64,000 bases of DNA from assembly GCA_965277405.1 (NCBI GenBank), contig OZ255726.1:1847128-1911127 (forward strand), written 5' to 3'. Shown in pieces: positions 3,384 through 41,600 of this stretch (within the stretch, counting starts at the first letter, position 1; each line of letters starts with the position of its first letter). This stretch comes from Gammaproteobacteria bacterium (GTDB lineage Bacteria; Pseudomonadota; Gammaproteobacteria; G965277405). Position numbers and translations under genes: made by a program. The notes below the pieces were generated by a model that saw only the letters and a program-made list of their open reading frames with translations, was not told the origin of the DNA and ran no database searches.

Positions 3384-3590
3384 TGATAGTACTCGCTGTC
3401 CTTTAAGATAAAAATTTATTATAGCGGCTCACTATGATAAATGTGAAGTGCCGTGCGTTAATCGAATCTTTGCAAATGTATCAGTTAAGACTGGCTGCAA
3501 TCTTATTGTTTTTTGGAAGATATCCATGCGGCTACTATCTCAAGAAACTCACACTCATAGCACCAAACAACACACTCATGCTTGATTATC

Positions 3591-3821
3591 TAAGGAAGCT
3601 CTGATTAAGTCCATGACGGGCGAGACGGAGCAAAAACGCTGCTGATAAATTAAGCGCAGTGCGCAGATAATACTGCTGGGTATTATTAAGTGCTGCAACG
3701 ACGTTAGTGCAGCGGTTTTGCTCAGTTCTTCTGTTGAATATACTTTGGGTTTGCGCCGTGCAATCATCAGCAATTGCAGGCAAACTCGCTCACTCGGCGG
3801 CTTAATCAGAGGTTCCCTAAG
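3591..3821. mobile_element. MITE-like non-coding element, copy a (~230 bp, inverted orientation relative to copies b and c)
   Basis: It begins CTAAGGAAGCTCTGATTAAGTCCATGACGGGCGAGACGG and ends GGCTTAATCAGAGGTTCCCTAAG. Its ends are inverted repeats of each other and match the other copies. No credible ORF lies inside. Confidence 0.7.
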
Positions 3822-3896
3822 CATATGAGGCGTTATTTTTTTTAGCCCTGCCCTCTGGTAGCTGGCAGTAACTAATTTGTTGATACTATTACGGCA

Positions 3897-4102
3897 AATG
3901 AATGCTTAATGAACCTTTGATTAAGGTAATATTTGCACCCAATTGTGCTCACGATAACAGCAATGCGTCAATATTTTCTATTGTTTATCTCCGTGTCGTC
4001 GTCACTTTTCTTCTGTATAACTTTCACTTTTCCATTCATTGCATACAGCTTGGCTATTTTCGAACCCCTATCTAGCCAATAAATTAAGCGTAGCGTTGCT
4101 AA
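3897..4102. repeat. Left copy of a ~205-215 bp inverted repeat bracketing the TA island
   Basis: Its reverse complement matches 7710..7925 at about 95% identity over >200 bp (…AATGAATGCTTAATGAACCTTTGATTAAGGTAATATTT…GCTATTTTCGAACCCCTATCTAGCCAATAAATTAAGCGTAGCGTTGCTAA). Confidence 0.8.
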
Positions 4103-4251
4103 CATCTCCATGTGTTCATACCACCGTGTAATCGTTTCGATCAAATCATGCATTTCACGAATTATATTTTGCATGTGTAGAGACCATCGCAATAACATAT
4201 GTTTTCATAAAAAATATCTTTATTCCTCATTACTCAAAAATCATCCTATGC

Positions 4252-4587
4252 GTGTATCAACAGGTCAGAATCTTAGTTTTACTGATGCTTTGGGAGGAAA
4301 TCCCCTCTAGTGAACTTGATTGTTTGGAAGAGCTCATACATTGGAAAGATCTGCGCCAACACCTGCGCATTGTGGCTGGAGACTATGACAATATCAGTAT
4401 GTTTAAAATACTGTTATTAACAACATGGTACACCTTAGCGGATGAAGCAGTGAGCCATGCAGTTACTCGCGATTTAGTTTGCATGAAGTTTGGTAATTTT
4501 ACTCTTGCAGGCTGCTTGTGCGGCAATGTGTGTCTGTTTGCGGAAAAGGTAGTGGAACATAATCTTTTCAAAGCCCTCCTTAGATAG
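4252..4587 (+). pseudogene. IS5-family transposase remnant (N-terminal InsH/DUF772-like domain only)
   Basis: The 111-aa ORF carries the characteristic …FKILLLTTWYTLADEAVSHAVTRDLVCMKFGNF… motif of the IS5/IS1182 transposase N-terminal domain, then terminates. No DDE catalytic domain follows, so the gene is truncated. Confidence 0.6.
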
Positions 4588-5019
4588 CAGCAATGCTGCC
4601 ATTGAACGTCAAGGCTTTAAACTTAGCAATGCCAATATGTATCGGCGGATGCATGGGGTGTTGCAGTGGTCTTCTAGTAGGCTTTATATGCAGGTATACA
4701 GAATAGTCAAGAAAAAAGTAGATAGGTAGAGAGATAAAGAATGTAAGAAAGTAGAGACGTAAATAAGTCTACTAGTAGATAGGTAAAAAAGCAGTCTAGT
4801 AATACGGGTATAAAACTTGACTTTGTTTTATTTTGAATAGGATAGGGGTATCGACAAAAAATTATTATGTATATTTTTTACATAATTTCATTTAGCGCCA
4901 AACATGGGAATAGATGAAGTTTTTTGTAGATACTAAATGACATCTGTTTCCTTTTTTGTGTATGGAAATAGGTGGTTTGTCGCTAAACAGGAAGCCCATA
5001 TAAGGGGTTTTCTTTTAAT

Positions 5020-5337
5020 TTACAAGTTTTTATTTGTTATGCGTTCGTCTAAAATAGAACGCCATTGACGATGAAGCTCCGCAACGAGATAAACGGCAAC
5101 TTGTTTTTTGTCTTCGTTGGGCTCGTAGGCAACAATATAATTATCCAACACAAACAATCTAATTCCGTCTTTATAAGAAACGCCAGAAAAGGGCAGGGTA
5201 GATAATGTATTTTTTGTGAGCTCTTGGAGTTTATCAATAAATCTAAGAGCATTTTTTGGACTGTCAGTGGCTATATAGTCAAGTATTTCATAAAAATCCT
5301 GATTAGCAATATCAGTGAAAATAACTTCATAATTCAT
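5020..5337 (-). CDS. Type II toxin, RelE/ParE family
   Basis: 105 aa, small and basic, sitting 4 bp downstream of a ParD-like antitoxin in the standard antitoxin-toxin order. The C-terminal …VYLVAELHRQW… resembles ParE/RelE. Confidence 0.65.
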   Translation of the reverse strand: MNYEVIFTDIANQDFYEILDYIATDSPKNALRFIDKLQELTKNTLSTLPFSGVSYKDGIRLFVLDNYIVAYEPNEDKKQVAVYLVAELHRQWRSILDERITNKNL

Positions 5338-5340
5338 GCG

Positions 5341-5598
5341 TTAGGCAAGGTTAGACATATATTTGCCTTTGACATAATCACGGGCTTTATCAAAATAAGC
5401 ATCATCAGCAACAGTGAATTTACCGTCCTCTACTTGTTGGCGTCCTAGAGCTATACGCTCATCAAGTTGTGAGTTTATAGACGACTTGATTTGATTTCTT
5501 AACGCTTCACGGATTACCTCACTTGCTGAGGCGTAATGCCCTGTTTCAAGTTGGCCAGCTACGTATTCTTCTAGGACTTTGGTTAGAGATATGTTCAT
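5341..5598 (-). CDS. Type II antitoxin, ParD family
   Basis: The likely start is MNISLTKVLEEYVAGQLETGHYASASEVIREALR… (a ParD signature). The upstream in-frame Met at 5664 gives an implausible hydrophobic leader. Confidence 0.7.
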   Translation of the reverse strand: MNISLTKVLEEYVAGQLETGHYASASEVIREALRNQIKSSINSQLDERIALGRQQVEDGKFTVADDAYFDKARDYVKGKYMSNLA

Positions 5599-5780
5599 GT
5601 TTACTCTTATTAAAAAAAAATAATTTAACACTAAACAGTATATATAAATAACAAAAAATGTCAATTCTTGTTATTTTTAGGTATAAGCCTTTAGGAGAAA
5701 TTGCAAGCTATAGCAAAAAATGTTGACATTAGCACAAAATCCTATTTCATTGCTAGCATAGGTTTATTTTCTAACGAGGT

Positions 5781-5969
5781 GTGATTATGACTACGAAATC
5801 TATAAGCGTTTCCGCTAATATTCCCGTAGAGCTAGGAGAGATGCTAGACAAAGTTTCACGGGCTGAGGAAAGGTCTAAAAGCTACTACATCAAAAAAGGG
5901 CTAGAGCAATTATTGAGAGATAGGCTAGAGGATTTAGAGGACTATCAAGACGCAAATACTGCTCGATAA
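5781..5969 (+). CDS. Ribbon-helix-helix (CopG/RelB-like) antitoxin, apparently orphan
   Basis: 62 aa (…SISVSANIPVELGEMLDKVSRAEERSKSYYIKKGLEQLL…) with an RHH fold pattern. No intact toxin ORF follows, and 5970..6470 holds only short broken frames. Confidence 0.5.
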   Translation: MIMTTKSISVSANIPVELGEMLDKVSRAEERSKSYYIKKGLEQLLRDRLEDLEDYQDANTAR

Positions 5970-6476
5970 TAGTTATTAATACTAATTGATGTCCACGGAT
6001 GAATGCCAGCAGCAGAGCGATTATAATCCCAATCCCCTCGCCTTGCCTTTTAGCTGAATCAAACCTTTGCCATGTATAACCGTTTTGAGTTTTTCAGATA
6101 TGCTCTTGTAATTTTTCATTGTTTTGACGCCCAAGACATTGTGAAGGATGCCATTGCTCCGGCAGCAGGTCAATCTCTACTAACGTAACCGATAGCATAT
6201 GCATTTGCAGTAAAAATACATGCAACAATTAATAGAAATGTAAAGTTAAAATATTTTTTCATGTGCTAAAGCTCCCTGTCTCTTAGTTATATTAGATTAA
6301 CTACTTTAAGTAAACGCGATTATCATACACAGTCGAATTCAAATTATTTTCAACTTTCTGCATTATAGTTGAAGTGCAGAATGTTACAAATCAAAATCTT
6401 GGCATAACTTTTGACAGAATCGCACTTTCGCACTTTCGCACTATAATACTGACATTACTTTCTAACCATACAAGCT

Positions 6477-6761
6477 ATGAGGTTACAAATGCCACTGGCA
6501 AAACTAAATGAGAAAAGGCAAATAACCGTCCCTATTGAGATATGTAATCAAATACACGCAGACAAAGGCGATATTTTTAATTTTGAGGTTGAAGGCGATA
6601 AGATCATTATGACGCTGCAAAAATTAGTCCCAGCTACAAAAGAAAATTCTCGCACTAAAGGCGTTGATATATATAAATATATAGGTTCAATGAAAGGTAC
6701 GTTTGGGTCTGTTGAAGAGATAGACGAATATATTCGTAACGAACGCGCTTCATGGGATTAA
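6477..6761 (+). CDS. AbrB/SpoVT-type antitoxin (VapB-like), pair 1
   Basis: 94 aa with the swapped-hairpin motif …RQITVPIEICNQIHADKGDIFNFEVEGDKIIM…. It overlaps the downstream PIN gene by 10 bp. The start may be Met5 (6489). Confidence 0.7.
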   Translation: MRLQMPLAKLNEKRQITVPIEICNQIHADKGDIFNFEVEGDKIIMTLQKLVPATKENSRTKGVDIYKYIGSMKGTFGSVEEIDEYIRNERASWD

Positions 6762-7201
6762 TTGAAATATTAAAAGAAAATGATGTTTATTTTGACGCTA
6801 TTATATTCATCTATTTATTAGATGGCAATGAAGCATACTCTACAGCCCTTGATGATATAAGGAAGCATATAGCTACTGATCAAGTTAGGGTTTTTAGTTG
6901 TAATTTAATCTATACGGAAATACTGCCTTATCATGCAAAGCAAAATAACCAAGGTGCTATTGAACATATAATTCGCTTTCTGGATAATTTTGATATTGTT
7001 AGAATATCTAAAGACATAACAATTCACGCAGGAATTTTACGTGGAGAAACTGGAATGAAAACCCCTGATGCTCTCCATGTTGCTACAGCTATAAATCAAA
7101 GTATAAATCAAAGATGCAGTCTGTTTTTAACAAATAATGCTGGTATTCGTGTACCTAAAAATATGCAACGCATTCTATTATCTGATTTTTGCGCTGAATA
7201 A
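6752..7201 (+). CDS. PIN-domain toxin (VapC-like), pair 1
   Basis: 149 aa with PIN acidic residues and the …MKTPDALHVATAI… motif. Its start overlaps the antitoxin. Confidence 0.7.
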   Translation: MGLIEILKENDVYFDAIIFIYLLDGNEAYSTALDDIRKHIATDQVRVFSCNLIYTEILPYHAKQNNQGAIEHIIRFLDNFDIVRISKDITIHAGILRGETGMKTPDALHVATAINQSINQRCSLFLTNNAGIRVPKNMQRILLSDFCAE

Positions 7202-7709
7202 TTGGATAACAATAAAATCATAAAAAAAGACCGAGCATAGGTGCATATTTTGACGATGAAGAAAAAGAGATTATTGAAGCTATTGAGCGAGATACATACT
7301 CTTTTGGCAAAAGTAACTTTAACCCTGAAAGGTTAGAGTTTTTAAGAAAGGTCGCAACAAACACTTTGAAAGAAAATGGTTTTATTGCTAATAACGCCTA
7401 GTTTGACAAAGCGCGTGATTATGGTCAAAAAAAATATATGTCTGACCATGATTAGCAATGACTATTTGCACTACGCTGTAAATGCAGAATGTGTAATTGT
7501 AAGAACGTGTCAATACGATGGTACGATACACTTAAAAATAATCTGAAAGAGCTTGGAGACGATCAAAGAATTCATTTTTGTCTGAGATCGTTTTTTCATT
7601 GTTGCTAGCTACTCCACGCGCTTCATCGTCCGCAGTAAAATTATCAATTAACACAACATCATTAGATGTTTGACCATCAATCAACATCAAAAAACTGTCT
7701 CCAATTTCC

Positions 7710-7925
7710 TTAGCAACGCTACGCTTAATTTATTGGCTAGATAGGGGTTCGAAAATAGCCAAGCTGTAGGCAATGAATGGAAAATTGCAAGTTATACAGA
7801 AGAAAAGTGACGACGACACGGAGATAAACAATGGAAAATATTGACGCATTGATGTTATCGTGAGCACAATTTGGTGGAAATATTACCTTAATCAAAGGTT
7901 CATTAAGCATTCATTAGCTATTGAC
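7710..7925. repeat. Right copy of the ~205-215 bp inverted repeat bracketing the TA island
   Basis: Reverse complement of 3897..4102. The frame of the small ORF seen in the left copy is broken here by a TAG. Confidence 0.8.
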
Positions 7926-22392: not shown

Positions 22393-22701
22393 TTAGGGAA
22401 GCTCTGATTAAGTCGCTGATGGAGCGAGTTTGATGGTAATTGCTGATGACTGCAAGGTGCAAACCGCACGCATGCCGCTGGCTCATGGCGGAGCATATCC
22501 GCCAAGGGGTGCAACACTGCAAGCGTAAGCAATTGGCGTAAACCAAGAGTATATTGCACACGGGAACGGGGGAAACGCAGCGCGTTGTTGTTGCAGCAGC
22601 ACGTGATAATACCACCAGTATTAGCTGCGCACTGCGCTTAAGTTATCATCAGCGTTGTTGTGCCGTCTCGCCCATCATGGACTTAATCAGAGGTTCGCGA
22701 A
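22393..22701. mobile_element. MITE-like non-coding element, copy b (~310 bp)
   Basis: Ends TTAGGGAAGCTCTGATTAAGTCGCTGATGGAGCGAGTTTGATGGTAATTGCTGATGA… and …CCGTCTCGCCCATCATGGACTTAATCAGAGGTTCGCGAA, which are inverted repeats. It lies ~100 bp upstream of bufA. Confidence 0.75.
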
Positions 22702-32199: not shown

Positions 32200-33180
32200 A
32201 TGCGCAACACGCTCAGCAAAATCCTGCTCGCCGCTTGGTACCAGCAACACCCGCTACGCTGGCTGCTGATCCCTATTTCATGGGTATATTGGCTGCTAGT
32301 GCTGCTGCGCCAACAGCCACGCCAGCCCAGCGAAAAACTGACGATTATTGTGGGCAATTACACCGTCGGCGGCACAGGCAAAACAGAGATAATCAAAGCA
32401 ATAGCACTCCATTATCCACAACTAAAAATTGGCATCGCCTATCAAGCGTATCGGGTTGATATCGCCACAGCACAGCTGGTAGATGCTGCCAACCCAAGCG
32501 TTTTTGGTGATGAACCGAGCATGCTCTTGCAGCATTGTGCGGCGCTGATTGCCGTTGCCAACAGCAGAGCAGATGCTGTTGCCTTGCTCAACCAACGCGA
32601 TGATGTTGATATTATTTTGCTCGATGATGGACTCCACAGCGCAGTCGCCCGCGATGCAGAAATTGTTCTTTTTGACGCACGCGGCGTTGGTAATGGCCAC
32701 CTCATCCCCGCCGGTCCGCTGCGCGTCCCGCTGCACAACACCGCCACCCAGCCAACAGCCAAGCGATTTATTGCGAGTAAAGGCAGCCCGCAACAACCAC
32801 AATTTTCCCACTTACCCGTATTCAGCTACCGAGTAAGCGCAATCGCCAATGCAGCGGGACAAATCAGCGTCGCAACATGGAAAAACCGCTATGCAGAGCA
32901 ACCTATTGTTGCCTTATCTGCCATCGCCAACCCACAAGGATTTTATCAGACCCTTGTCGACATAGGGATTTCATTCACCGCGTTGACCTTGGCTGACCAC
33001 AGCACCCTCGCAGATGCAGATTTTAACGACGATACCGTGTATCTGATGACCGCAAAAGACGCCGTAAAATATCAGCACTTACCTGCTAAGTATATCTGGC
33101 ATGTGGCTATTGAGCTAATCCCACCAACAGGATTATGGGACTTTGTTGATGAAGTTATTGCCAAAGGAAGTTCTGATTAA
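32200..33180 (+). CDS. lpxK: Tetraacyldisaccharide 4'-kinase LpxK
   Basis: P-loop …IIVGNYTVGGTGKTE… with a length of 326 aa, immediately after msbA. Confidence 0.85.
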   Translation: MRNTLSKILLAAWYQQHPLRWLLIPISWVYWLLVLLRQQPRQPSEKLTIIVGNYTVGGTGKTEIIKAIALHYPQLKIGIAYQAYRVDIATAQLVDAANPSVFGDEPSMLLQHCAALIAVANSRADAVALLNQRDDVDIILLDDGLHSAVARDAEIVLFDARGVGNGHLIPAGPLRVPLHNTATQPTAKRFIASKGSPQQPQFSHLPVFSYRVSAIANAAGQISVATWKNRYAEQPIVALSAIANPQGFYQTLVDIGISFTALTLADHSTLADADFNDDTVYLMTAKDAVKYQHLPAKYIWHVAIELIPPTGLWDFVDEVIAKGSSD

Positions 33181-33221
33181 GCCATGCTGGGCAAGACAGA
33201 ACAACAACGAAAGCCCACACC

Positions 33222-33416
33222 ATGAAACCAAGCTCGCGCATCCTACCAATCATCGTCTGCCCACTGTGTAAAGCACCGCTACACCGCGTTGGTGCAGAAC
33301 TCTGGTGCCGTGCTGAAAAAATCGCCTATCCAATCCAAGGCAAATCGCTGCAGCTATTCGTCGCAGCTGCACGACCATTATCGCTGGAAGAGCTGGAAAA
33401 GCAGCTGTTACCATAG
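33222..33416 (+). CDS. Trm112/YcaR-family small zinc-ribbon protein
   Basis: 64 aa with …IVCPLCKAPL…LWC…IAYPIQ… in the YcaR pattern, at the usual position after lpxK. Confidence 0.65.
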   Translation: MKPSSRILPIIVCPLCKAPLHRVGAELWCRAEKIAYPIQGKSLQLFVAAARPLSLEELEKQLLP

Positions 33417-33771
33417 TTGTCGCCGCTATACATAACTTAACATAACTTATTACTCCATCGGCTGGGGTGGAGTCTTGGCGGTTACGCTGCAGCCGAACGG
33501 TCGCAGCTTAACGCCAAACCCCCGCGCTAATCCGTCAATCCCGCTCCTTACCAAGAACCAAGAACCAATAAGCAATAACCGATAACAGTAGCTATTCGAC
33601 CGCAGCGACCAAGCCCCTTGTTTGCTCAGGCTGCTGTGAATTGGGGCAGCATTAGCAAAACTCTGATGCAGCCGCTAATGCAGCGAGTAGATTAAACTAG
33701 GTTTTTTACCTTGTATTTCTTGCCCAAAGTATGCCAACATTAGCCTATAGAAATATTTACTGCCGCAGCCT

Positions 33772-34689
33772 ATGAAATATTTACTGCCAATACTCATGAG
33801 TGCCGCCCTCTTGGCGTTCTCAACCGTGGGTTGTGCTGCCGATTTGCAGCAAGGTCTAACTACCTATAACAATAGCGACTACCCAACTGCTATTCGCGAA
33901 TTACAACCGCTTGCTGAACAGGGCAATGCCGAAGCCCAGTTCAAGCTGGGTGTAATGTATTATAACGGAAAAGGCGTGCCGCAAGACTCTAAGGTGGCGC
34001 TGCAGTGGTATGAACGTGCCGCAGCACAGCGATATGCCAAAGCCCAGTTACAGATGGGTTTAATGTATTTTTACGGAAAAGGTGTAGCGCAAGACGCTAA
34101 GGCGGGGCTGCAGTGGTATAAACTTGCCGCAGCACAGGGAGATGCCGACGCCCAGAGCATTCTGGGTTGGATGTATGGTAAAGGAGAAGGTGTAGCGCAA
34201 GACTATCAGGCGGCGCTGCAGTGGTGTAAACTTGCCGCAGCACAGGGAGATGCTGACGCCCAGAACAATATGGGTTGGATGTATCATAATGGATACGGTG
34301 TATTGCAAGACTATCAGGCGGCGCTGCAGTGGTATAAACTTGCCGCAGCACAGGGAAATGCCAACGCCCAAGTCAATTTGGGAATGATGTATGGTAGCGG
34401 AAAAGGTGTGCCGCAAGACTATAAGGCGGGGCTGCAGTGGTATAAACTTGCCGCAGCACAGGGAGATGCTGACGCCCAAAACAATCTGGGAGTGATGTAT
34501 GCTAACGGAACAGGTGTAATCCAAGATAATGTGTATGCCCATATGTGGTATAATATTGCGGCGTATAATGAAAGTACGACAGGAGCAAAATCGCGAGATA
34601 GTCTTGCTAAAGTAATGACCGCTGCCCAGATCGCTAGCGCACAGCAACTTGCCCGTGAATGTGTCAAGAAAAAGTATAAGGGGTGTTGA
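33772..34689 (+). CDS. Secreted Sel1-repeat (SLR/TPR-like) protein, short paralog
   Basis: 305 aa with a signal peptide (MKYLLPILMSAALLAFSTVGCAADLQQ) and about seven 36-aa Sel1 repeats (…AQ.NLG.MY..G.GV.QDY..A..WYKLAAAQG.A…). Confidence 0.8.
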   Translation: MKYLLPILMSAALLAFSTVGCAADLQQGLTTYNNSDYPTAIRELQPLAEQGNAEAQFKLGVMYYNGKGVPQDSKVALQWYERAAAQRYAKAQLQMGLMYFYGKGVAQDAKAGLQWYKLAAAQGDADAQSILGWMYGKGEGVAQDYQAALQWCKLAAAQGDADAQNNMGWMYHNGYGVLQDYQAALQWYKLAAAQGNANAQVNLGMMYGSGKGVPQDYKAGLQWYKLAAAQGDADAQNNLGVMYANGTGVIQDNVYAHMWYNIAAYNESTTGAKSRDSLAKVMTAAQIASAQQLARECVKKKYKGC

Positions 34690-34867
34690 ATAGCAGCGTT
34701 GTCAACTTGATGCTAGCTGTGCTGCCACCTTGCCAACAGTGCTAGCCTAGGCTAATCAGGTTGTGACGTAGACGATGAGAAAATATATGTCACAGCAGCA
34801 GAAAACTAGGCTGCTGCGTTGCATCCCTCGGCGTATATGCTACGGCATGCGCTCAAGGTAATGTGCG

Positions 34868-34943
34868 CGGAATGCGCTTTGCAATCATCAGCAATTGCCA
34901 TCAAACCAGCCCCATCAGCGGCTTAATCAGACCTTCCCAAGGG
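34868..34943. repeat. Solo end fragment of the MITE-like element (copy e)
   Basis: …GCAATCATCAGCAATTGCCATCAAACCAGCCCCATCAGCGGCTTAATCAGACCTTCCCAAGG matches the B-type end of the full copies. It marks the duplication-unit junction. Confidence 0.6.
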
Positions 34944-35357
34944 TAACTGCGTTATTTACTGCCTCACGCTCCTTATCGCTTGAAGATCTGGAAAAGGAGC
35001 TGCAAACATAGTTGTCGCCGCTATACATAACTTAACATAACTTATTATTCCATCGGCTGGGGTGGAGTCTTGGCGGTTACGCTGCAGCCGAACGGTCGCA
35101 GCTTGACGCCAAACCCCCGCGCTAATCCGTCAATCCCACTCCTTACCAAGAACCAAGAACCAATAACCAATAACAGCAGCTATTCGACCGCAGCGACCAA
35201 GCCCCTTGTTTGCTCAGGCTGCTGTGAATTGGGGCAGCATTAGCAAAACTCTGATGCAGCCGCTAATGCAGCGAGTAGATTAAACTAGGTTTTTACCCTG
35301 TATTTCTTGCCCCAAGTATGCCAACATTAGCATATGAAATATTTACTGCCGAAGCCT

Positions 35358-38219
35358 ATGAAATATTTACTGCCAATACTAATGAGTGCCGCCCTCTTGG
35401 CGTTGTTAACCGCGGGTTGTGCTGCCGATTTGCAGCAAGGTTTAACTGCCTATAACAATAGCGACTACCCAACTGCTATTCGCGAATTACAACCGCTTGC
35501 TGAACAGGGCAATGCCGACGCCCAGTACAAGCTGGGTCTGATGTATTATAACGGAAAAGGTGTGCCGCAAGACTATAAGGCGGCGCTGCAGTGGTATAAA
35601 CTTGCCGCAGCACAGGGAGATGCCAGTTCCCAGTACAAGCTGGGTCTAATGTATGACAACGGAAAAGGTGTAGCTCAGGACTATAAGGAGGCGCTGCAGT
35701 GGTATAAACTTGCCGCAGCACAAGGACATGCCGATGCCCAGTACAATCTGGGTCTAATGTATGACAACGGAAAAGGTGTAGCTCAGGACTATAAGGAGGC
35801 GCTGCAGTGGTATGAACTTGCCGCAGCACAGGGAAAAGCCAGTGCCCAGGACAGTCTGGGTCTGATGTATTATAACGGAAAAGGTGTGCCGCAAGACTAT
35901 AAGGCGGCGCTGCAGTGGTACAAACTTGCCGCAGCACAGGGAGATGCTGTTGCCCAGTACAATCTGGGTATAATGTATGGTAATGGAAAAGGTGTAGCGC
36001 AAGACTATAAGGCGGCGCTGCAGTGGTATAAACTTGCCGCAGCACAGGGAGATGCTGACGCCCAAAACAATCTGGGAGTGATGTATGCTAACGGAACAGG
36101 TGTAGCGCAAGACTATAAGGCGGCGCTGCAGTGGTATAAACTTGCCGCAGCACAGGGAGATGCCGTAGCCCAGAACAATCTGGGTAATAAGTATAAGAAT
36201 GGAAAAGGTGTAACGCAAGACTATAATGCGGCGCTGCAGTGGTATAAACTTGCCGCAGCACAAGGTCATGCTGACGCCCAGTTTAAGCTGGGTTTAATGT
36301 ATTATAACGGAAAAGGTGTAGCGCAAGACTATAAGGCGGCACTGCAGTGGTGGAAACTTGCCGCGGCACAGGGAGATGCTGTTGCCCAGTACAATCTGGG
36401 TATAATGTATGGTAATGGAAAAGGTGTAGCGCAAGACTATAAGGCGGCGCTGCAGTGGTGGGAACTTGCCGCAGCACAGGGATATGCCAGTGCCCAGGAC
36501 AGTCTGGGTAGGATGTATAATTACGGAAAAGGTGTAGCGCAAGACTATAAGGCGGCGTTGCAGTGGTATAAACTTGCCGCAGCACAGGGATATGCCAGTG
36601 CCCAGTACAAGCTGGGTCTAATGTATGACAACGGAAAAGGTGTAGCGCAAGACGATAAGGAGGCGCTGCAGTGGTATAAACTTGCCGCAGCACAAGGACA
36701 TGCCACAGCCCAGTTCAATTTGGGTGTGATGTATAACCACGGACATGGTGTAGCGCAAGACTCTAAGGCGGCGGTGCAGTGGTGGAAACTTGCCGCAGCC
36801 CAGGGAGAAGCCGACGCCCAGTTCAATCTGGGTGTAATGTATGCTAACGGAAAAGTTGTAGCGCAAGACTATCAGGAGGCGCTGCAGTGGTATAAACTTG
36901 CCGCAGCACAGGGACATGCCAAGGCCCAGTACAATCTGGGTTGGATGTATGGAAATGGAAAAGGTGTAGCTCAAGACTCTAAGGCGGCGGTGCAGTGGTG
37001 GAAACTTGCCGCAGCACAAGGATATGCCAGTGCCCAGAACAGTCTGGGTAGGATGTATAAGTACGGAAAAGGTGTAGCGCAAGACTATCAGGCGGCGCTG
37101 CGCTGGTATAAACTTGCCGCAGCACAGGGATATGCCGCAGCACAGGACAATCTGGGAGTGATGTATAAGCATGGATACGGTGTGGCGCAAGACTCTAAGG
37201 CGGCGCTGCAGTGGTGGAAACTTGCCGCAGCACAGGGACATGCTGGCGCCAAGTTCCATTTGCGTTGGTATAAGAACGGAAAAGGTGTGCCGCAAGACTC
37301 CAAGGCGGCGCTGCAGAGGCATAAACTTGCCGCTGCACAGGGAGAAGCCGCAGCCCAGTTGAATTTGGGTTTAATGTATAAGAACGGAAAAGGTGTAGCG
37401 CAAGACTATAAGGCGGCGCTGCAGTGGTTTAAACTTGCCGCAGCACAGGGAGTTGCCAGTGCCAAGTACAATCTGGGTATAATGTATGCTAACGGAAAAG
37501 GTGTAGCGCAAGACAATAAGGAGGCGCTGCAGTGGTATAAACTTGCCGCAGCACAGGGAGATGCCATGTACCAGTTCCATCTGGGTTTCATGTATGATAA
37601 CGGAAAAGGTGTGCCGCAAGACTATAAGGCGGCGCTGCAGTGGTATAAACTTGCCGCAGCACAGGGACACGCCACAGCCCAGTTCAATCTGGGTGTAACG
37701 TATGATAACGGAAGAAAAGGTGTACCACAAGACTATAAGGCGGCGCTGCAGTGGTACAAACTTGTCGCAGCACAGGGACATGCCGTAGCCCAGACCAATC
37801 TGGGAGTGATGTATACTAACGGAAAAGGTGTATTGCAAGACTATGAGGTGGCGCTGAAGTGGTATAAACTTGCCGCAGCACAGGGAGAAGCCAACGCCCA
37901 AGCCAATCTGGGAATCATGTATGGTAGCGGAGAAGGTGTAGCGCAAGACTATCAGGCGGCGCTGCAGTGGTGGACACTTGCCGCAGCACAGAGACACGCC
38001 GGTGCCCAGTTCAATCTAGGTTGGATGTATGCTAACGGAACAGGTGTACTCCAAGATAATGTGTATGCCCATATGTGGTACAATATTGCGGCGTATAATG
38101 GCAGTGCGCAAGGAGCAAAGTTGCGAGATCGGCGTGCTAAAGTAATGACCGCTGCCCAGATCGCTAGCGCACAGCAACTTGCCCGTGAATGTGTCAAGAA
38201 AAAGTATAAGGGGTGTTGA
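35358..38219 (+). CDS. Secreted Sel1-repeat protein, expanded paralog (~26 repeats)
   Basis: It has the same signal peptide and the same first and last repeats as the short paralog, with the internal 108-bp units amplified and nearly identical at the DNA level. The ORF track begins at 35334 because of a duplicated MKYLLP codon block. The likely start is 35358. Confidence 0.8.
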   Translation: MKYLLPILMSAALLALLTAGCAADLQQGLTAYNNSDYPTAIRELQPLAEQGNADAQYKLGLMYYNGKGVPQDYKAALQWYKLAAAQGDASSQYKLGLMYDNGKGVAQDYKEALQWYKLAAAQGHADAQYNLGLMYDNGKGVAQDYKEALQWYELAAAQGKASAQDSLGLMYYNGKGVPQDYKAALQWYKLAAAQGDAVAQYNLGIMYGNGKGVAQDYKAALQWYKLAAAQGDADAQNNLGVMYANGTGVAQDYKAALQWYKLAAAQGDAVAQNNLGNKYKNGKGVTQDYNAALQWYKLAAAQGHADAQFKLGLMYYNGKGVAQDYKAALQWWKLAAAQGDAVAQYNLGIMYGNGKGVAQDYKAALQWWELAAAQGYASAQDSLGRMYNYGKGVAQDYKAALQWYKLAAAQGYASAQYKLGLMYDNGKGVAQDDKEALQWYKLAAAQGHATAQFNLGVMYNHGHGVAQDSKAAVQWWKLAAAQGEADAQFNLGVMYANGKVVAQDYQEALQWYKLAAAQGHAKAQYNLGWMYGNGKGVAQDSKAAVQWWKLAAAQGYASAQNSLGRMYKYGKGVAQDYQAALRWYKLAAAQGYAAAQDNLGVMYKHGYGVAQDSKAALQWWKLAAAQGHAGAKFHLRWYKNGKGVPQDSKAALQRHKLAAAQGEAAAQLNLGLMYKNGKGVAQDYKAALQWFKLAAAQGVASAKYNLGIMYANGKGVAQDNKEALQWYKLAAAQGDAMYQFHLGFMYDNGKGVPQDYKAALQWYKLAAAQGHATAQFNLGVTYDNGRKGVPQDYKAALQWYKLVAAQGHAVAQTNLGVMYTNGKGVLQDYEVALKWYKLAAAQGEANAQANLGIMYGSGEGVAQDYQAALQWWTLAAAQRHAGAQFNLGWMYANGTGVLQDNVYAHMWYNIAAYNGSAQGAKLRDRRAKVMTAAQIASAQQLARECVKKKYKGC

Positions 38220-38286
38220 ATAGCAGCGTTGTCAACTTGATGCTAGCTGTGCTGCCACCTTGCCAACATTGCTAGCCTAGGCTAAT

Positions 38287-38313
38287 CAGCGGACTTAATC
38301 AGACCTTCCCAAG
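38287..38313. repeat. Solo end fragment of the MITE-like element (copy f) overlapping the thiQ 3' end
   Basis: AGCGGACTTAATCAGACCTTCCCAAGG. The last ~7 codons and the TAA stop of thiQ are encoded by this fragment. Confidence 0.55.
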
Positions 38314-38918
38314 GTAACTACGTTATTTACTGCCGCTGTATCTTGCGGGTCGTGGGTTACCAGCAGCGTGGTGATCTGTTGTTGTTGGATAAAACGATAG
38401 CACCATTGGCGTAGGTCATGCCGCAGTGTTTGGTCAAGCGATGCAAACGGCTCGTCGAGCAGCAACACTTTAGGTCGCGTCACCAACGTCCGCGCGATGG
38501 CAACGCGTTGTTGTTCCCCGCCTGAAATATTGCAGACATGGCTAGTTGCCAAATGGGCGATTTGACAAGTTGCTAACATCGTCATTGCTCGCTGGCGCGC
38601 TTGTTTTTTGGGAAGTTTATACAAGCCAAAGGTAATATTGCTGAGCACATTAAGGTGGGGAAACAACGCATACTGCTGGAAGACAAAACCAACATTACGC
38701 AGTTGTGGCGGGACGGTGTGGATAGGCGTGCCGTTTAATATTATTTCGCCGCTATCACCATTTTCCAGTCCGGCAATGACCCGCAATAAAGTCGATTTAC
38801 CGCAGCCAGATGCACCCAGGACAGCGGTAATGCTCCCAGTGGCGCAGCGCAGCGAAAAGTCACTAAACAACGGCGGTTTGCCTGCAAAAGTTTTTGATAA
38901 ACGCTGTATTTCAAGCAT
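38295..38918 (-). CDS. thiQ: Thiamine ABC transporter ATP-binding protein ThiQ
   Basis: A 207-aa single ABC domain (Walker A GASGCGKST, signature ISGGEQQRV, Walker B LLLDEPF). It is the last gene of the thiB-thiP-thiQ operon with a TPP riboswitch upstream. Confidence 0.75.
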   Translation of the reverse strand: MLEIQRLSKTFAGKPPLFSDFSLRCATGSITAVLGASGCGKSTLLRVIAGLENGDSGEIILNGTPIHTVPPQLRNVGFVFQQYALFPHLNVLSNITFGLYKLPKKQARQRAMTMLATCQIAHLATSHVCNISGGEQQRVAIARTLVTRPKVLLLDEPFASLDQTLRHDLRQWCYRFIQQQQITTLLVTHDPQDTAAVNNVVTLGRSD

Positions 38919-41480: not shown

Positions 41481-41521
41481 GAGTACTCCTGATGAATGAA
41501 CAAAAAAAAATATCAGCAGTA

Positions 41522-41600
41522 CTCATCTCCCTTCGCTGGTATTAACCAGTGCAGGTTCGGAGGGTATTTCTCAGCCATATAGCACCCCTGATGTTGGTTT
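41522..41600 (-). promoter_or_regulatory. TPP (THI-box) riboswitch in the thiBPQ leader
   Basis: The minus-strand sequence reads …CATCAGGGGTGCTATATGGCTGAGAAATACCCTCCGAACCTGCACTGGTTAATACCAGCGAAGGGAG…, which carries the GGGGUGC, CUGAGA, GAACCUG and UAAUACCAGCG…GGGA THI-box hallmarks. Confidence 0.8.

Follow-up and report, generated by a model that had tools for sequence, protein, structure and literature searches.

We propose that two adjacent + strand genes, g1 and g2, found in a 64-kb stretch of DNA that was analysed as a whole (the window), probably encode paralogous, exported alpha-solenoid proteins built from Sel1-like repeats (SLR), which arose by tandem duplication, whose units were shaped by slow recombination and which would serve as scaffolds. 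The locus is real and is a case of fairly ordinary repeat-protein evolution, with no new class of mechanism. The two Sel1 open reading frames described in the earlier note, of 305 and 961 aa, were recovered on the + strand at 33772..34689 and 35334..38219, and g2 probably starts at the second ATG, at 35358, giving 953 aa rather than 961 aa. The genes are separated by 644 bp, and housekeeping genes make up the neighbourhood within ±10 kb. The features of the locus are as follows.

33166..33210, no strand: L-type MITE end (TIR GGAAGTTCTGATTAAG plus ~30 nt), overlapping the last codons and stop of lpxK (…GSSD, stop)
33222..33416, + strand: trm112-like (YcaR-type) gene, 64 aa (Pfam PF03966, E 1.4e-11), its final ~16 codons within duplication unit 1
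33366..34963, + strand: duplication unit 1, with trm112 tail, leader, g1, 3' UTR, MITE R-end and a 26-nt ATPase-tail copy
33417..33771, + strand: leader 1, 355 nt, 95% identical to leader 2
33742..33788, + strand: 24-bp tandem duplication around the start codon; in g1 its first copy reads ATAG instead of ATG
33772..34689, + strand: g1, SLR protein of 305 aa, in which a putative signal peptide and N-cap are followed by 6 full units and a C-cap that ends …ARECVKKKYKGC
33880..34527, + strand: units A1-A6, six units of 108 bp, A6 being chimeric
34759..34937, + strand: partial MITE found in the tail of unit 1 alone, comprising the body, the core TTGCAATCATCAGCAATTGCCATCAAAC and an R-type TIR
34914..34963, - strand: frameshifted pseudo-copy of the ABC-ATPase gene 3' end (…AVNNAVTLG…), ending at the junction 34963|34964
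34964..35011, + strand: pseudo-copy of the trm112 3' end (SLSLEDLEKELQT, stop), 79% identical to 33369-33416
34964..38334, + strand: duplication unit 2, with trm112-tail pseudo-copy, leader 2, g2, 3' UTR, MITE R-end remnant and the real ATPase tail
35012..35357, + strand: leader 2
35358..38219, + strand: g2, SLR protein of 953 aa from the second ATG (961 aa from 35334), with 24 full units and sharing its putative signal peptide and its caps with g1
35466..38057, + strand: units B1-B24, twenty-four units, of which B17 has 105 bp, B21 has 111 bp and the others 108 bp
38285..38309, no strand: MITE R-type end remnant, the element body deleted between ATCAG direct repeats
38295..38918, - strand: convergent ABC-transporter ATPase gene, closing a thiamine-type SBP-permease-ATPase operon, with the 40 nt at its 3' end lying within unit 2

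Tandem duplication of a 1.6-kb segment

Alignment of one copy against the other bears out the tandem duplication and the composition of its units that the earlier note had described. Specifically, a segment of ~1.6 kb reaching from lpxK/ycaR to the thiamine-type ABC operon was tandemly duplicated via illegitimate recombination, and the copies meet at the junction 34963|34964. Identity between them is 95% in the leader, 94% in the signal peptide and N-cap, 95% in the first unit, 93% in the C-cap and 99% in the 3' UTR. The pseudo-copy of the trm112 3' end, which had been placed at 34972..35010, was found in unit 2 and is slightly longer (34964-35011, 79% identity), and the ATPase-tail copy in unit 1 is non-functional and 94% identical to the real tail. 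One breakpoint lies within the 3' end of ycaR (the trm112-like gene) and the other 26 nt into the 3' end of the ATPase gene, and the two sites, 5' in trm112 and 3', have just four nucleotides, CTGC, in common. The short direct repeats ATTTACTGCC, put forward earlier as candidate recombination points, do occur six times in the window and every time inside the locus, but they were not the homology for the duplication, since the breakpoints share only that tetranucleotide.

Leader 1 has no Rfam match and its fold is not significant (z = -1.4), so no structured RNA is indicated, and the promoter scan of the leader returned no promoter-like site on the + strand. The repeated minus-strand "promoters" returned by the scan in the array are a single weak match copied along with the unit.

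Repeat units, their divergence and their history

Tandem Repeats Finder gives a period of 108 with 5.6 copies in g1 and 23.6 copies in g2 (82-83% matches). The in-frame difference in repeat number claimed earlier stands, but the counts of ~7 and ~26 become 6 and 24 full units of 36 aa, to which N- and C-caps are added. The units are also less alike than the description "near-identical" implied: alignment of all 30 gives a mean pairwise nucleotide identity of 0.80 (range 0.58-0.96) with no identical pair, the closest two units differing at 4/108 sites (0.963), and adjacent units averaging 0.84. Likewise, the first and last repeats, said to be identical in the two genes, agree at 95% and 93% only, and A6, the last full unit of g1, has 95% identity to B6 and merely 82% to B24. 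In place of the "dozens" of antisense ORFs with one motif we counted 13 with a length of 60 aa or more, spread over three frames and with three distinct recurring motifs. No higher-order periodicity was found in the array, mean identity being flat over offsets 1-15, nor was any positional orthology between A2-A5 and B2-B5. Codon use per column is near-invariant at conserved residues (e.g., CTT for Leu10 in 27/27 and CTG for Leu5 in 25/26), and because this choice is column-specific it indicates that all units descend from one ancestral 108-bp unit.

The two copies diverge in a bimodal manner, by ~20% in some stretches and by 0-5% in others. The trm112 tail differs at 10/48 sites and the leader at 9/346 (p = 1e-5), and A2-5/B2-5 differ at 72/430 sites compared with 20/562 for the 5' block (p = 1e-12). 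Moreover, A6 is a chimera in which nt 1-99 follow B6 and the match to B24 begins at ~34496, and a 25-nt stretch is common to A6, B6 and B24. The chimera and two exact tracts, of 117 and 134 bp, shared by the copies support past recombination among units, and from the bimodal divergence together with the B6/B24 chimera we propose that the duplication is old and that gene conversion later acted on it in patches. The ~20% would represent neutral divergence since the duplication, and the leader, signal peptide, first unit, A6/B6, cap end and 3' UTR, all of low divergence (0-5%), would be later conversion patches between the copies. Unit number would shift by occasional unequal recombination in short identical stretches such as that of 25 nt in A6, B6 and B24, and copy number would alter on evolutionary timescales without rapid reversible switching. 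It should be noted that the ATPase-tail copy, at 94%, would suit a younger duplication unless conversion extended there. The change could have gone in either direction, by expansion of g2 or by an 18-unit deletion in g1, and no simple model of either kind fits because A2-A5 are without positional partners in g2.

The alternative favored in the earlier note is a contingency-type or VNTR locus, in which frequent RecA-dependent or slipped-strand changes of the 108-bp array would vary the length of a surface or secreted protein between cells or strains. Such variation has a parallel in slrV of H. influenzae, where the motif number per gene differs between strains (PMC4792463). Here, too, the units are tandem and in-frame, and the A6 chimera is a footprint of earlier recombination. 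Within g2 there are 223 exact matches of 20 nt or more, up to 94 nt in length, exceeding the minimal pairing length of ~25 nt for RecA recombination in E. coli. However, an array whose turnover is faster than its mutation is expected to contain runs of identical units, and in this case identical pairs are absent, the closest pair reaching 96% and adjacent units averaging 84%. Mismatch repair strongly suppresses recombination between sequences that are 10-20% diverged, and mutL is present in the window. Unit-specific substitutions had time to build up and were sorted by selection at defined columns. In addition, the units (108 bp, with 105 and 111 in two) are multiples of three inside the ORF, which does not provide for on/off switching by repeat change, and with a mean of 0.80, a maximum of 0.963 and 0.84 between neighbors they are not the (nearly) identical DNA units of a hypervariable VNTR. 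Hence, with the premise of near-identity gone, there is no longer a foundation for the idea that RecA frequently expands and contracts the array; no feature of the sequence speaks for contingency-type switching, and we consider it improbable.

The encoded proteins and other explanations of the locus

Both proteins match the Pfam Sel1 family (PF08238, gathering threshold 30.7 bits), g1 with 198.6 bits over 6 stretches (E 4e-60) and g2 with 728.2 bits over 23 stretches (E 2e-227). The AlphaFold model of g1 (pLDDT 95, pTM 0.84) repeats a 13-residue helix, 7-residue loop, 13-residue helix and 3-residue loop and resembles solved SLR proteins, in agreement with the family and fold assigned at the outset. 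Its best structural matches are LpnE (6DEH, TM 0.78), LceB (8SXQ_C, TM 0.82, rmsd 1.9 Å), Oxalobacter Sel1 proteins and HcpC; the Foldseek matches include 6ORK (TMt 0.93), and phmmer against the PDB gave 6OK3 (5e-81) and EsiB (5e-77). The single-sequence AlphaFold model of full-length g2 is uninformative (pLDDT 44) and the fold of g2 rests on Pfam and unit identity. The long copy is predicted to form ~3 superhelical turns.

In the N-terminus of both proteins, MKYLLPILMSAALLA(F/L)…, the N-region is basic and the core hydrophobic (mean Kyte-Doolittle 1.9-2.1), and the segment aligns with the signal-like N-termini of homologues. The common signal peptide of the earlier claim is present in both as a signal-like hydrophobic segment, 94% identical when taken with the N-cap. 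We predict that g1 and g2 are Sec-exported. The C-cap, …ARECVKKKYKGC, has two cysteines in both genes, a terminal pair of the form C-x(6-12)-C occurs in 50/120 homologues, and in the homologue alignment C297 and C305 are conserved at 90% or more; this conserved pair is compatible with export. The combination of signal-like N-terminus and …ARECVxKKYKGC cap is common to many Sel1 proteins. The cysteines of g1 and g2 are confined to the two ends, and the Cys at position 21 makes a lipobox, or lipoprotein processing, possible.

The g2 ORF has accumulated 272 substitutions from the consensus, and both unit indels (105-bp B17 and 111-bp B21) are in-frame. Under neutrality 16.8 stops would be expected and none is observed (P = 5e-8), an absence indicating that the 2.9-kb ORF is held open by purifying selection. 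Within the units, the 23 conserved columns have pS = 0.16 and pN = 0.035, and the hypervariable columns 16, 18, 21, 25, and 28 have pN = 0.54. These five are helix-1 positions 2, 5, 9, and 12 and the preceding loop residue, and they coincide with ligand-face positions of TPR proteins (2, 5, 9, 12, 13, 33, and 34; PMC1261162). In EsiB and LceB, helix-1 forms the concave, less conserved face (PMC3851747; PMC10868440), and when mapped by solved SLR structures, not by g1 coordinates, the amino-acid variation appears to cluster on the concave-face helix and the residue before it. We propose that g1 and g2 are putative protein- or ligand-binding scaffolds that would act through a heterogeneous concave groove; a role in host interaction would be speculation. 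Relaxed constraint, and not diversifying selection, could account for the nonsynonymous excess in these five columns, and standard codon-model tests are invalid for the units because the units recombine.

One could go further and read g1 and g2 as a slow system of binding-surface variation, in which conversion and unequal exchange within and between the two genes would reshuffle units, so that an exported adaptor would change in length as well as in specificity. The invariant SLR scaffold with its diversified concave-face residues would then be a natural "consensus-repeat library", and the ~95% conserved leader and caps would be fixed recombination anchors. We give this extension a low probability and prefer paralogous scaffolds whose units changed by slow recombination.

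It is very unlikely that these scaffolds have one of the known specific SLR functions, namely orphan periplasmic type VI immunity, as in tandem SLR genes of the Tli5b/PA5086-5088 type, or MerG-like resistance. PA5086-5088 are tandem SLR paralogues and are among the structural matches (ranks 36-50), but the PA508x proteins align with a TM of ~0.46 and 20% identity, far below LpnE, LceB, EsiB and the Oxalobacter proteins, and the ±10 kb around the locus contain neither a phospholipase effector nor type VI or mer genes. We rejected the MerG family (NCBIfam NF033786, cut-off 350), for which g2 scores 505 bits, as that score sums 11 repeat stretches, g1 reaches only 151, and there are no mer genes nearby.

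The "MITE end" of the earlier note is real, and the 16-mer CTTAATCAGAssTTCC occurs 10 times in the 64-kb window where 0 are expected, with inverted pairs at 3594/3801 and 22397/22682. The final codons of the convergent ATPase gene, and its stop, are supplied by the MITE end, and the duplicated segment extends 26 nt past this end into that gene. The L-type end at 33166-33210 and the R-type ends at 34783-34937 and 38285-38309 have the relative orientation found in the complete elements (3594-3816 and 22397-22697), which fits a mobile cassette, with the ycaR-Sel1 segment imported, movable or duplicable through the L- and R-type ends of one MITE family. We hold out little prospect for such a cassette. 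The placement of ycaR immediately after lpxK is native and conserved in synteny across Gammaproteobacteria; the density of MITE ends makes two independent decayed insertions likely; the breakpoints of the duplication lie off the MITE ends, inside ycaR and 26 nt past the R-end; and no transposase, recombinase or reverse transcriptase was found in the 64-kb window.

Finally, mis-assembly as the source of unit 2 or of the long array is the least probable explanation of all: the region is rich in repeats, and g1, g2 and the Trm112-like protein are absent from the protein collection (with several start codons tried) that holds flanking proteins of the same 2.17-Mb contig, an absence that database construction could explain, but every unit is unique, the longest exact repeats (94 nt in g2, tracts of 117 bp and 134 bp between duplication units) are shorter than ordinary reads or read pairs, making collapse or expansion unlikely, the ORF is intact across 953 codons, the source contig is one 2.17-Mb sequence, and mis-assembly would not produce a clean junction with diverged pseudo-tails (79% and 94%).

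Relatives, meaning and known systems

Exact-protein look-ups with LpxK and g1 gave no match, and a scan of the genome collection with LpxK found no relative. The same scan with MnmG gave a best match of 58% identity, with many gammaproteobacterial orders represented, so that the collection contains no close species. In metagenome DNA, the C-cap pattern had 0 matches and a unit-core 20-mer had 3, which are chance matches without Sel1 coding. The search for g1 homologues returned generic Sel1 proteins only, at no more than 50-58% identity. The source is an isolated gammaproteobacterial lineage with a 2.17-Mb genome. If expressed and exported, g1 and g2 would be a clean natural example of the growth of a solenoid binding protein, with the scaffold frozen even at the codon level and the predicted ligand-contacting residues diversifying. 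The locus could help in looking for the ligand, which would be a periplasmic or host target in the groove of ~3 superhelical turns, and could be a size marker should isolates appear. Haemophilus and Helicobacter have already provided examples of tandem SLR paralogues with unequal motif numbers and of selection on SLR surfaces.

The alpha C protein of group B Streptococcus, an example of the hypervariable surface proteins with in-frame tandem repeats, has (nearly) identical DNA units that vary between isolates and during infection. It is like g1 and g2 in its long in-frame tandem units, in being exported (which is predicted for g1 and g2) and in a unit number open to change by homologous recombination (likewise proposed for g1 and g2), but the latter have no identical units. 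E. coli EsiB/c5321 (4BWR) and H. pylori Hcp/slr (HcpC, 1OUV) have the same 13-7-13-3 geometry as g1. Their concave face is less conserved and used for peptide contacts (PMC3851747), and the slr family of H. pylori grew by duplication, with selection on surface residues (PMC1941758). Hcp proteins differ in having a disulfide in each repeat, the cysteines of g1 and g2 being restricted to the two ends; furthermore, the slr paralogues are dispersed rather than adjacent, and H. pylori is without MutHSL whereas mutL is present in the window.

LpnE, LceB and EnhC of Legionella pneumophila share with g1 and g2 a C-terminal capping helix and have, as is predicted for g1 and g2, a Sec-type signal and helix-1 as the concave face, and 7-21 repeats are reported for the Legionella SLR group (PMC10868440). 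Identity to g1 and g2 is just 32-38%, however, and the Legionella genes are dispersed and single, have diverged repeats, and are the only ones of the two sets with a demonstrated host-cell role.

The closest precedent is slrV of H. influenzae (including msf/slrVA; Kress-Bennett et al., 2016, PMC4792463). The slrV proteins have a signal peptide at the N-terminus (PMC4792463), as is predicted for g1 and g2, and like g1 and g2 they carry SLR motifs of 36 aa and a conserved two-cysteine motif at the C-terminus (PMC4792463); the genes are likewise in tandem at one locus between core genes as paralogues that differ in motif number, with 2 versus 4 motifs at the H. influenzae locus (PMC4792463). The two systems differ in unit number, 6 and 24 compared with 2-5 in slrV, and in the units within a gene being far more alike in g1 and g2 (offset-36 self-identity 0.62), and the likeness to Msf is one of described features. 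In both, motifs do not cluster by gene or position, and the history described for slrV is one of gene and motif duplication and contraction (PMC4792463).

The locus and its surroundings

The two neighbouring genes that we call g1 and g2 match the Sel1 family PF08238 in Pfam with 6 stretches (E 4e-60) and 23 stretches (E 2e-227), respectively, in agreement with the family named in the earlier note. They lie among the following features.

32200-33180: lpxK
33222-33416: Trm112-like gene (ycaR), 64 aa, between lpxK and the convergent ABC-transporter operon
About 33366-34963: unit 1, first copy of the tandem duplication
33772-34689 (+): g1, 305 aa
34964-38334: unit 2, second copy, ends collinear with unit 1
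35334-38219 (+): g2, 961 aa
41480-38295 (-): SBP-permease-ATPase operon, convergent to g1 and g2
41511-41599 (-): TPP riboswitch (Rfam RF00059, 70 bits), upstream of the operon
3594-3816, 22397-22697, 13657, 33166, 34922, 38294, 44426 and 57601: sites of the dispersed MITE family

Tandem Repeats Finder gives a period of 108 with 5.6 copies in g1 and 23.6 in g2 (82-83% matches), and in the 36-aa register there are six full units in g1 (A1-A6) and 24 in g2 (B1-B24), B17 being one codon short and B21 one codon long. The array flanks are alike in both genes, which have the same signal-like N-terminus with an N-cap and the same C-cap ending …AQQLARECVKKKYKGC. Both start regions carry a 24-bp tandem duplication (33742-33788; 35329-35381), which gives g2 two in-frame ATGs (MKYLLPKPMKYLLP…); both genes probably start at the second ATG (35358 in g2), because the first copy in g1 reads ATAG for ATG, a 1-nt insertion that destroys the first ATG. 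That first g1 copy also shares the 13-nt sequence TATTTACTGCCGC (33754-33766) with the 3' coding end of the ATPase gene (38323-38335), an identity with a post hoc chance expectation of about 0.01.

The TPP riboswitch marks the convergent operon as a thiamine-type ABC importer, and its substrate-binding protein matches TIGR01254 (277 bits). The remaining neighbours within ±10 kb are all housekeeping genes, and among the neighbours of g1 and g2 we detected no genes for effectors, secretion systems, mer functions, reverse transcriptases or transposases. A MORN-repeat protein (PF07661; 47308-48303, -), from another "eukaryote-like" repeat family, is encoded 9 kb from the pair. Three paralogues of ~610-680 aa with a C-terminal sulfatase-family domain (PF00884; 26031-27875, -; 52266-54305, -; 61862-63745, +) resemble phosphoethanolamine transferase or LTA synthase, and one lies within a low-G+C patch (52-55 kb). 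A further ~4.4 kb at ~3400-7850 has 34-37% G+C vs ~47% elsewhere; its ORFs are at most 149 aa long, and it gives no Rfam or tRNA match.

Unit duplication and the MITE family

The tandem duplication described in the earlier note is largely right in its anatomy.

Nucleotide identity between unit 1 and unit 2, by segment
trm112 tail: 79% (10 mismatches in 48 nt)
Leader, the 5' segment between trm112 tail and Sel1 gene: 95%
Signal peptide and N-cap: 94%
First repeat unit: 95%
C-cap: 93%
3' UTR: 99%
ATPase tail: 94%

The duplicated segment runs 26 nt past the MITE end into ATPase coding sequence, so that the true breakpoints lie inside ycaR and inside the ATPase gene. Only CTGC is common to both sides of the junction (34963|34964). 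The decamer ATTTACTGCC, previously suggested as a recombination point, occurs six times, all in the locus, and cannot have mediated the unit duplication because it is missing at the 5' breakpoint.

The "MITE end" was correctly recognized. The 16-mer CTTAATCAGAssTTCC occurs ten times in the window vs none expected, with inverted pairs at 3594/3801 and 22397/22682, and a 28-nt core occurs three times. Elements of this MITE-like family measure ~220-300 bp and carry terminal inverted repeats GGAAsCTCTGATTAAG; ten ends lie within the 64 kb. Unit 1 retains ~180 nt of an element (34759-34937) and unit 2 only the terminal ~25 nt. The terminal repeat contains TGA and TAA; an R-type terminus provides the last codons and stop of the convergent ATPase gene (…GRSD*), and the opposite type does so for lpxK (…GSSD*). 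The ycaR-Sel1 segment is flanked by an L-type end (33166-33210) and R-type ends (34783-34937, 38285-38309), oriented as in complete elements; they may be two insertions that have decayed, or an element that is split or mobilising.

History of the repeat arrays

The 108-bp units had been called near-identical, a description that does not hold: the 30 units average 0.80 in pairwise nucleotide identity, from 0.58 to 0.96, and every unit is different. B5/B9 is the closest pair (0.963), followed by A1/B1, A6/B6 and B2/B11 (0.954 each) and B10/B15 (0.944). The units of one gene do not group together; positional partners between g1 and g2 exist only for units 1 and 6, and the identity of A2-A5 to B2-B5 (0.80-0.84) is no higher than to any other unit. 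Within the array there is no higher-order period, mean identity staying at 0.82-0.85 for all offsets of 1-15, and mean similarity is higher in B2-B11 (0.866) than in B12-B24 (0.814). Exact matches of at least 20 nt within g2 number 223 (longest 94 nt), and homologous exchange among its units is therefore possible, on poor substrates.

Codons at conserved residues are nearly invariant and set by column (position 1-36 within the unit), not by amino acid: Leu5 is CTG in 25/26 units vs CTT for Leu10 in 27/27, Ala11 is GCC in 27/27 vs GCA for Ala12 in 26/28, and Gly30 is GGA in 28/28 vs GGT for Gly32 in 27/27. This column-specific invariance shows that the units were amplified from one DNA unit and did not arise by convergence. 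On the minus strand of the arrays (33772-38219), all three frames are open over long stretches (up to 250 codons), and each unit repeats a weak sigma-70-like match (TTTATA-17-TATAGT); these are by-products of copying one unit and not evidence for antisense genes.

Divergence between unit 1 and unit 2 falls into two significantly different classes (Fisher p = 1e-5 and 1e-12). About 20% is seen in the trm112 tail, A2-5 vs B2-5 and an 11-mismatch cluster in the C-cap (34551-34604), and 0-5% in the leader, signal peptide, repeat unit 1, A6/B6, cap end and 3' UTR, with exact runs of 117 nt in the leader and 134 nt in the 3' UTR. We propose that an old duplication of the unit, at about 0.2 neutral divergence, would have been followed by patches of gene conversion or unequal exchange between the g1 and g2 paralogues. 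A6 is a B6/B24 chimera: its first 99 nt differ from B6 by one mismatch, it continues as B24 and the cap from about 34496, and the 25 nt between these parts are the same in all three units. The difference in unit number may reflect either expansion of g2 or loss of 18 units in g1.

An assembly error behind the repeat structure is unlikely, as each unit has its own sequence and exact repeats extend to 94-134 nt at most. The flanking proteins are singletons in the protein collection, all from one 2,174,577-bp contig. LpxK has its next-best relative at 36% identity, MnmG reaches at most 58%, and no DNA match was found in metagenome contigs. MsbA, LpxK, the ATPase and the permease of this contig are in the collection; g1, g2 and the Trm112-like protein are absent.

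The proposal of a contingency locus is not supported. Unit lengths are always multiples of three, which makes on/off switching impossible. In the in-frame arrays known to be hypervariable, the units are identical, as turnover is faster than mutation; the youngest detectable event here is already 1-4% diverged. Mismatch repair suppresses recombination between diverged repeats, and mutL is encoded within the window. In H. pylori, missing MutHSL has been invoked to explain slr duplications (PMC1941758).

Selection, predicted fold and known Sel1-like repeat proteins

The g2 units carry 272 differences from their consensus, and 6.2% of all possible single substitutions would create a stop; the array contains none vs ~17 expected under neutrality (P about 5e-8), and its two indels keep the frame. 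On this coding pattern, the g2 array is maintained. Variation is focused in columns 16, 18, 21, 25 and 28 (7-9 different residues each; pN = 0.54), vs pN 0.035 and pS 0.16 in the 23 conserved columns and pS 0.21 over the whole array; the higher pN than pS fits diversifying selection without proving it.

The AlphaFold model of g1 (pLDDT 95, pTM 0.84; alignment of 19 sequences) gives, per repeat, a helix in columns 17-29, a 7-residue loop, a helix in columns 1-13 and a 3-residue loop. The tabulated geometry of EsiB/c5321 is exactly this, and its first helix is described as forming the less conserved, peptide-contacting concave face (PMC3851747); the description of LceB agrees (PMC10868440). In helix 17-29 the variable columns occupy positions 2, 5, 9 and 12, with one more at the residue preceding the helix, and they coincide with the TPR positions that vary most and face the ligand (2, 5, 9, 12, 13, 33 and 34; PMC1261162). 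By analogy, they map to a predicted concave binding face.

Judged by sequence matches, long Sel1 arrays are common: 278,432 clusters match g2 at E ≤ 1e-3, the best 150 representatives span 662-6337 aa, and the signal peptide, "ADFQKG" N-cap and …ARECVxKKYKGC cap recur near-verbatim in unrelated metagenomic proteins. Amino-acid self-identity at offset 36 is 0.62 in g2 vs a maximum of 0.45 among 120 homologues, short stretches of which reach similarly high unit similarity; the unusual feature of g2 on this comparison is the length over which such similarity persists.

Among described systems, the H. influenzae slrV/msf locus comes closest: its 0 to 5 tandem genes encode proteins with a signal peptide, 36-aa Sel1-like repeats and a two-cysteine C-terminal motif, paralogues differ in motif number, and motifs of one gene do not group together (PMC4792463). 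We regard g1 and g2 as tandem Sel1-like repeat paralogues shaped by unit amplification, gene conversion and predicted binding-face diversification, a further example of an already known kind of locus.
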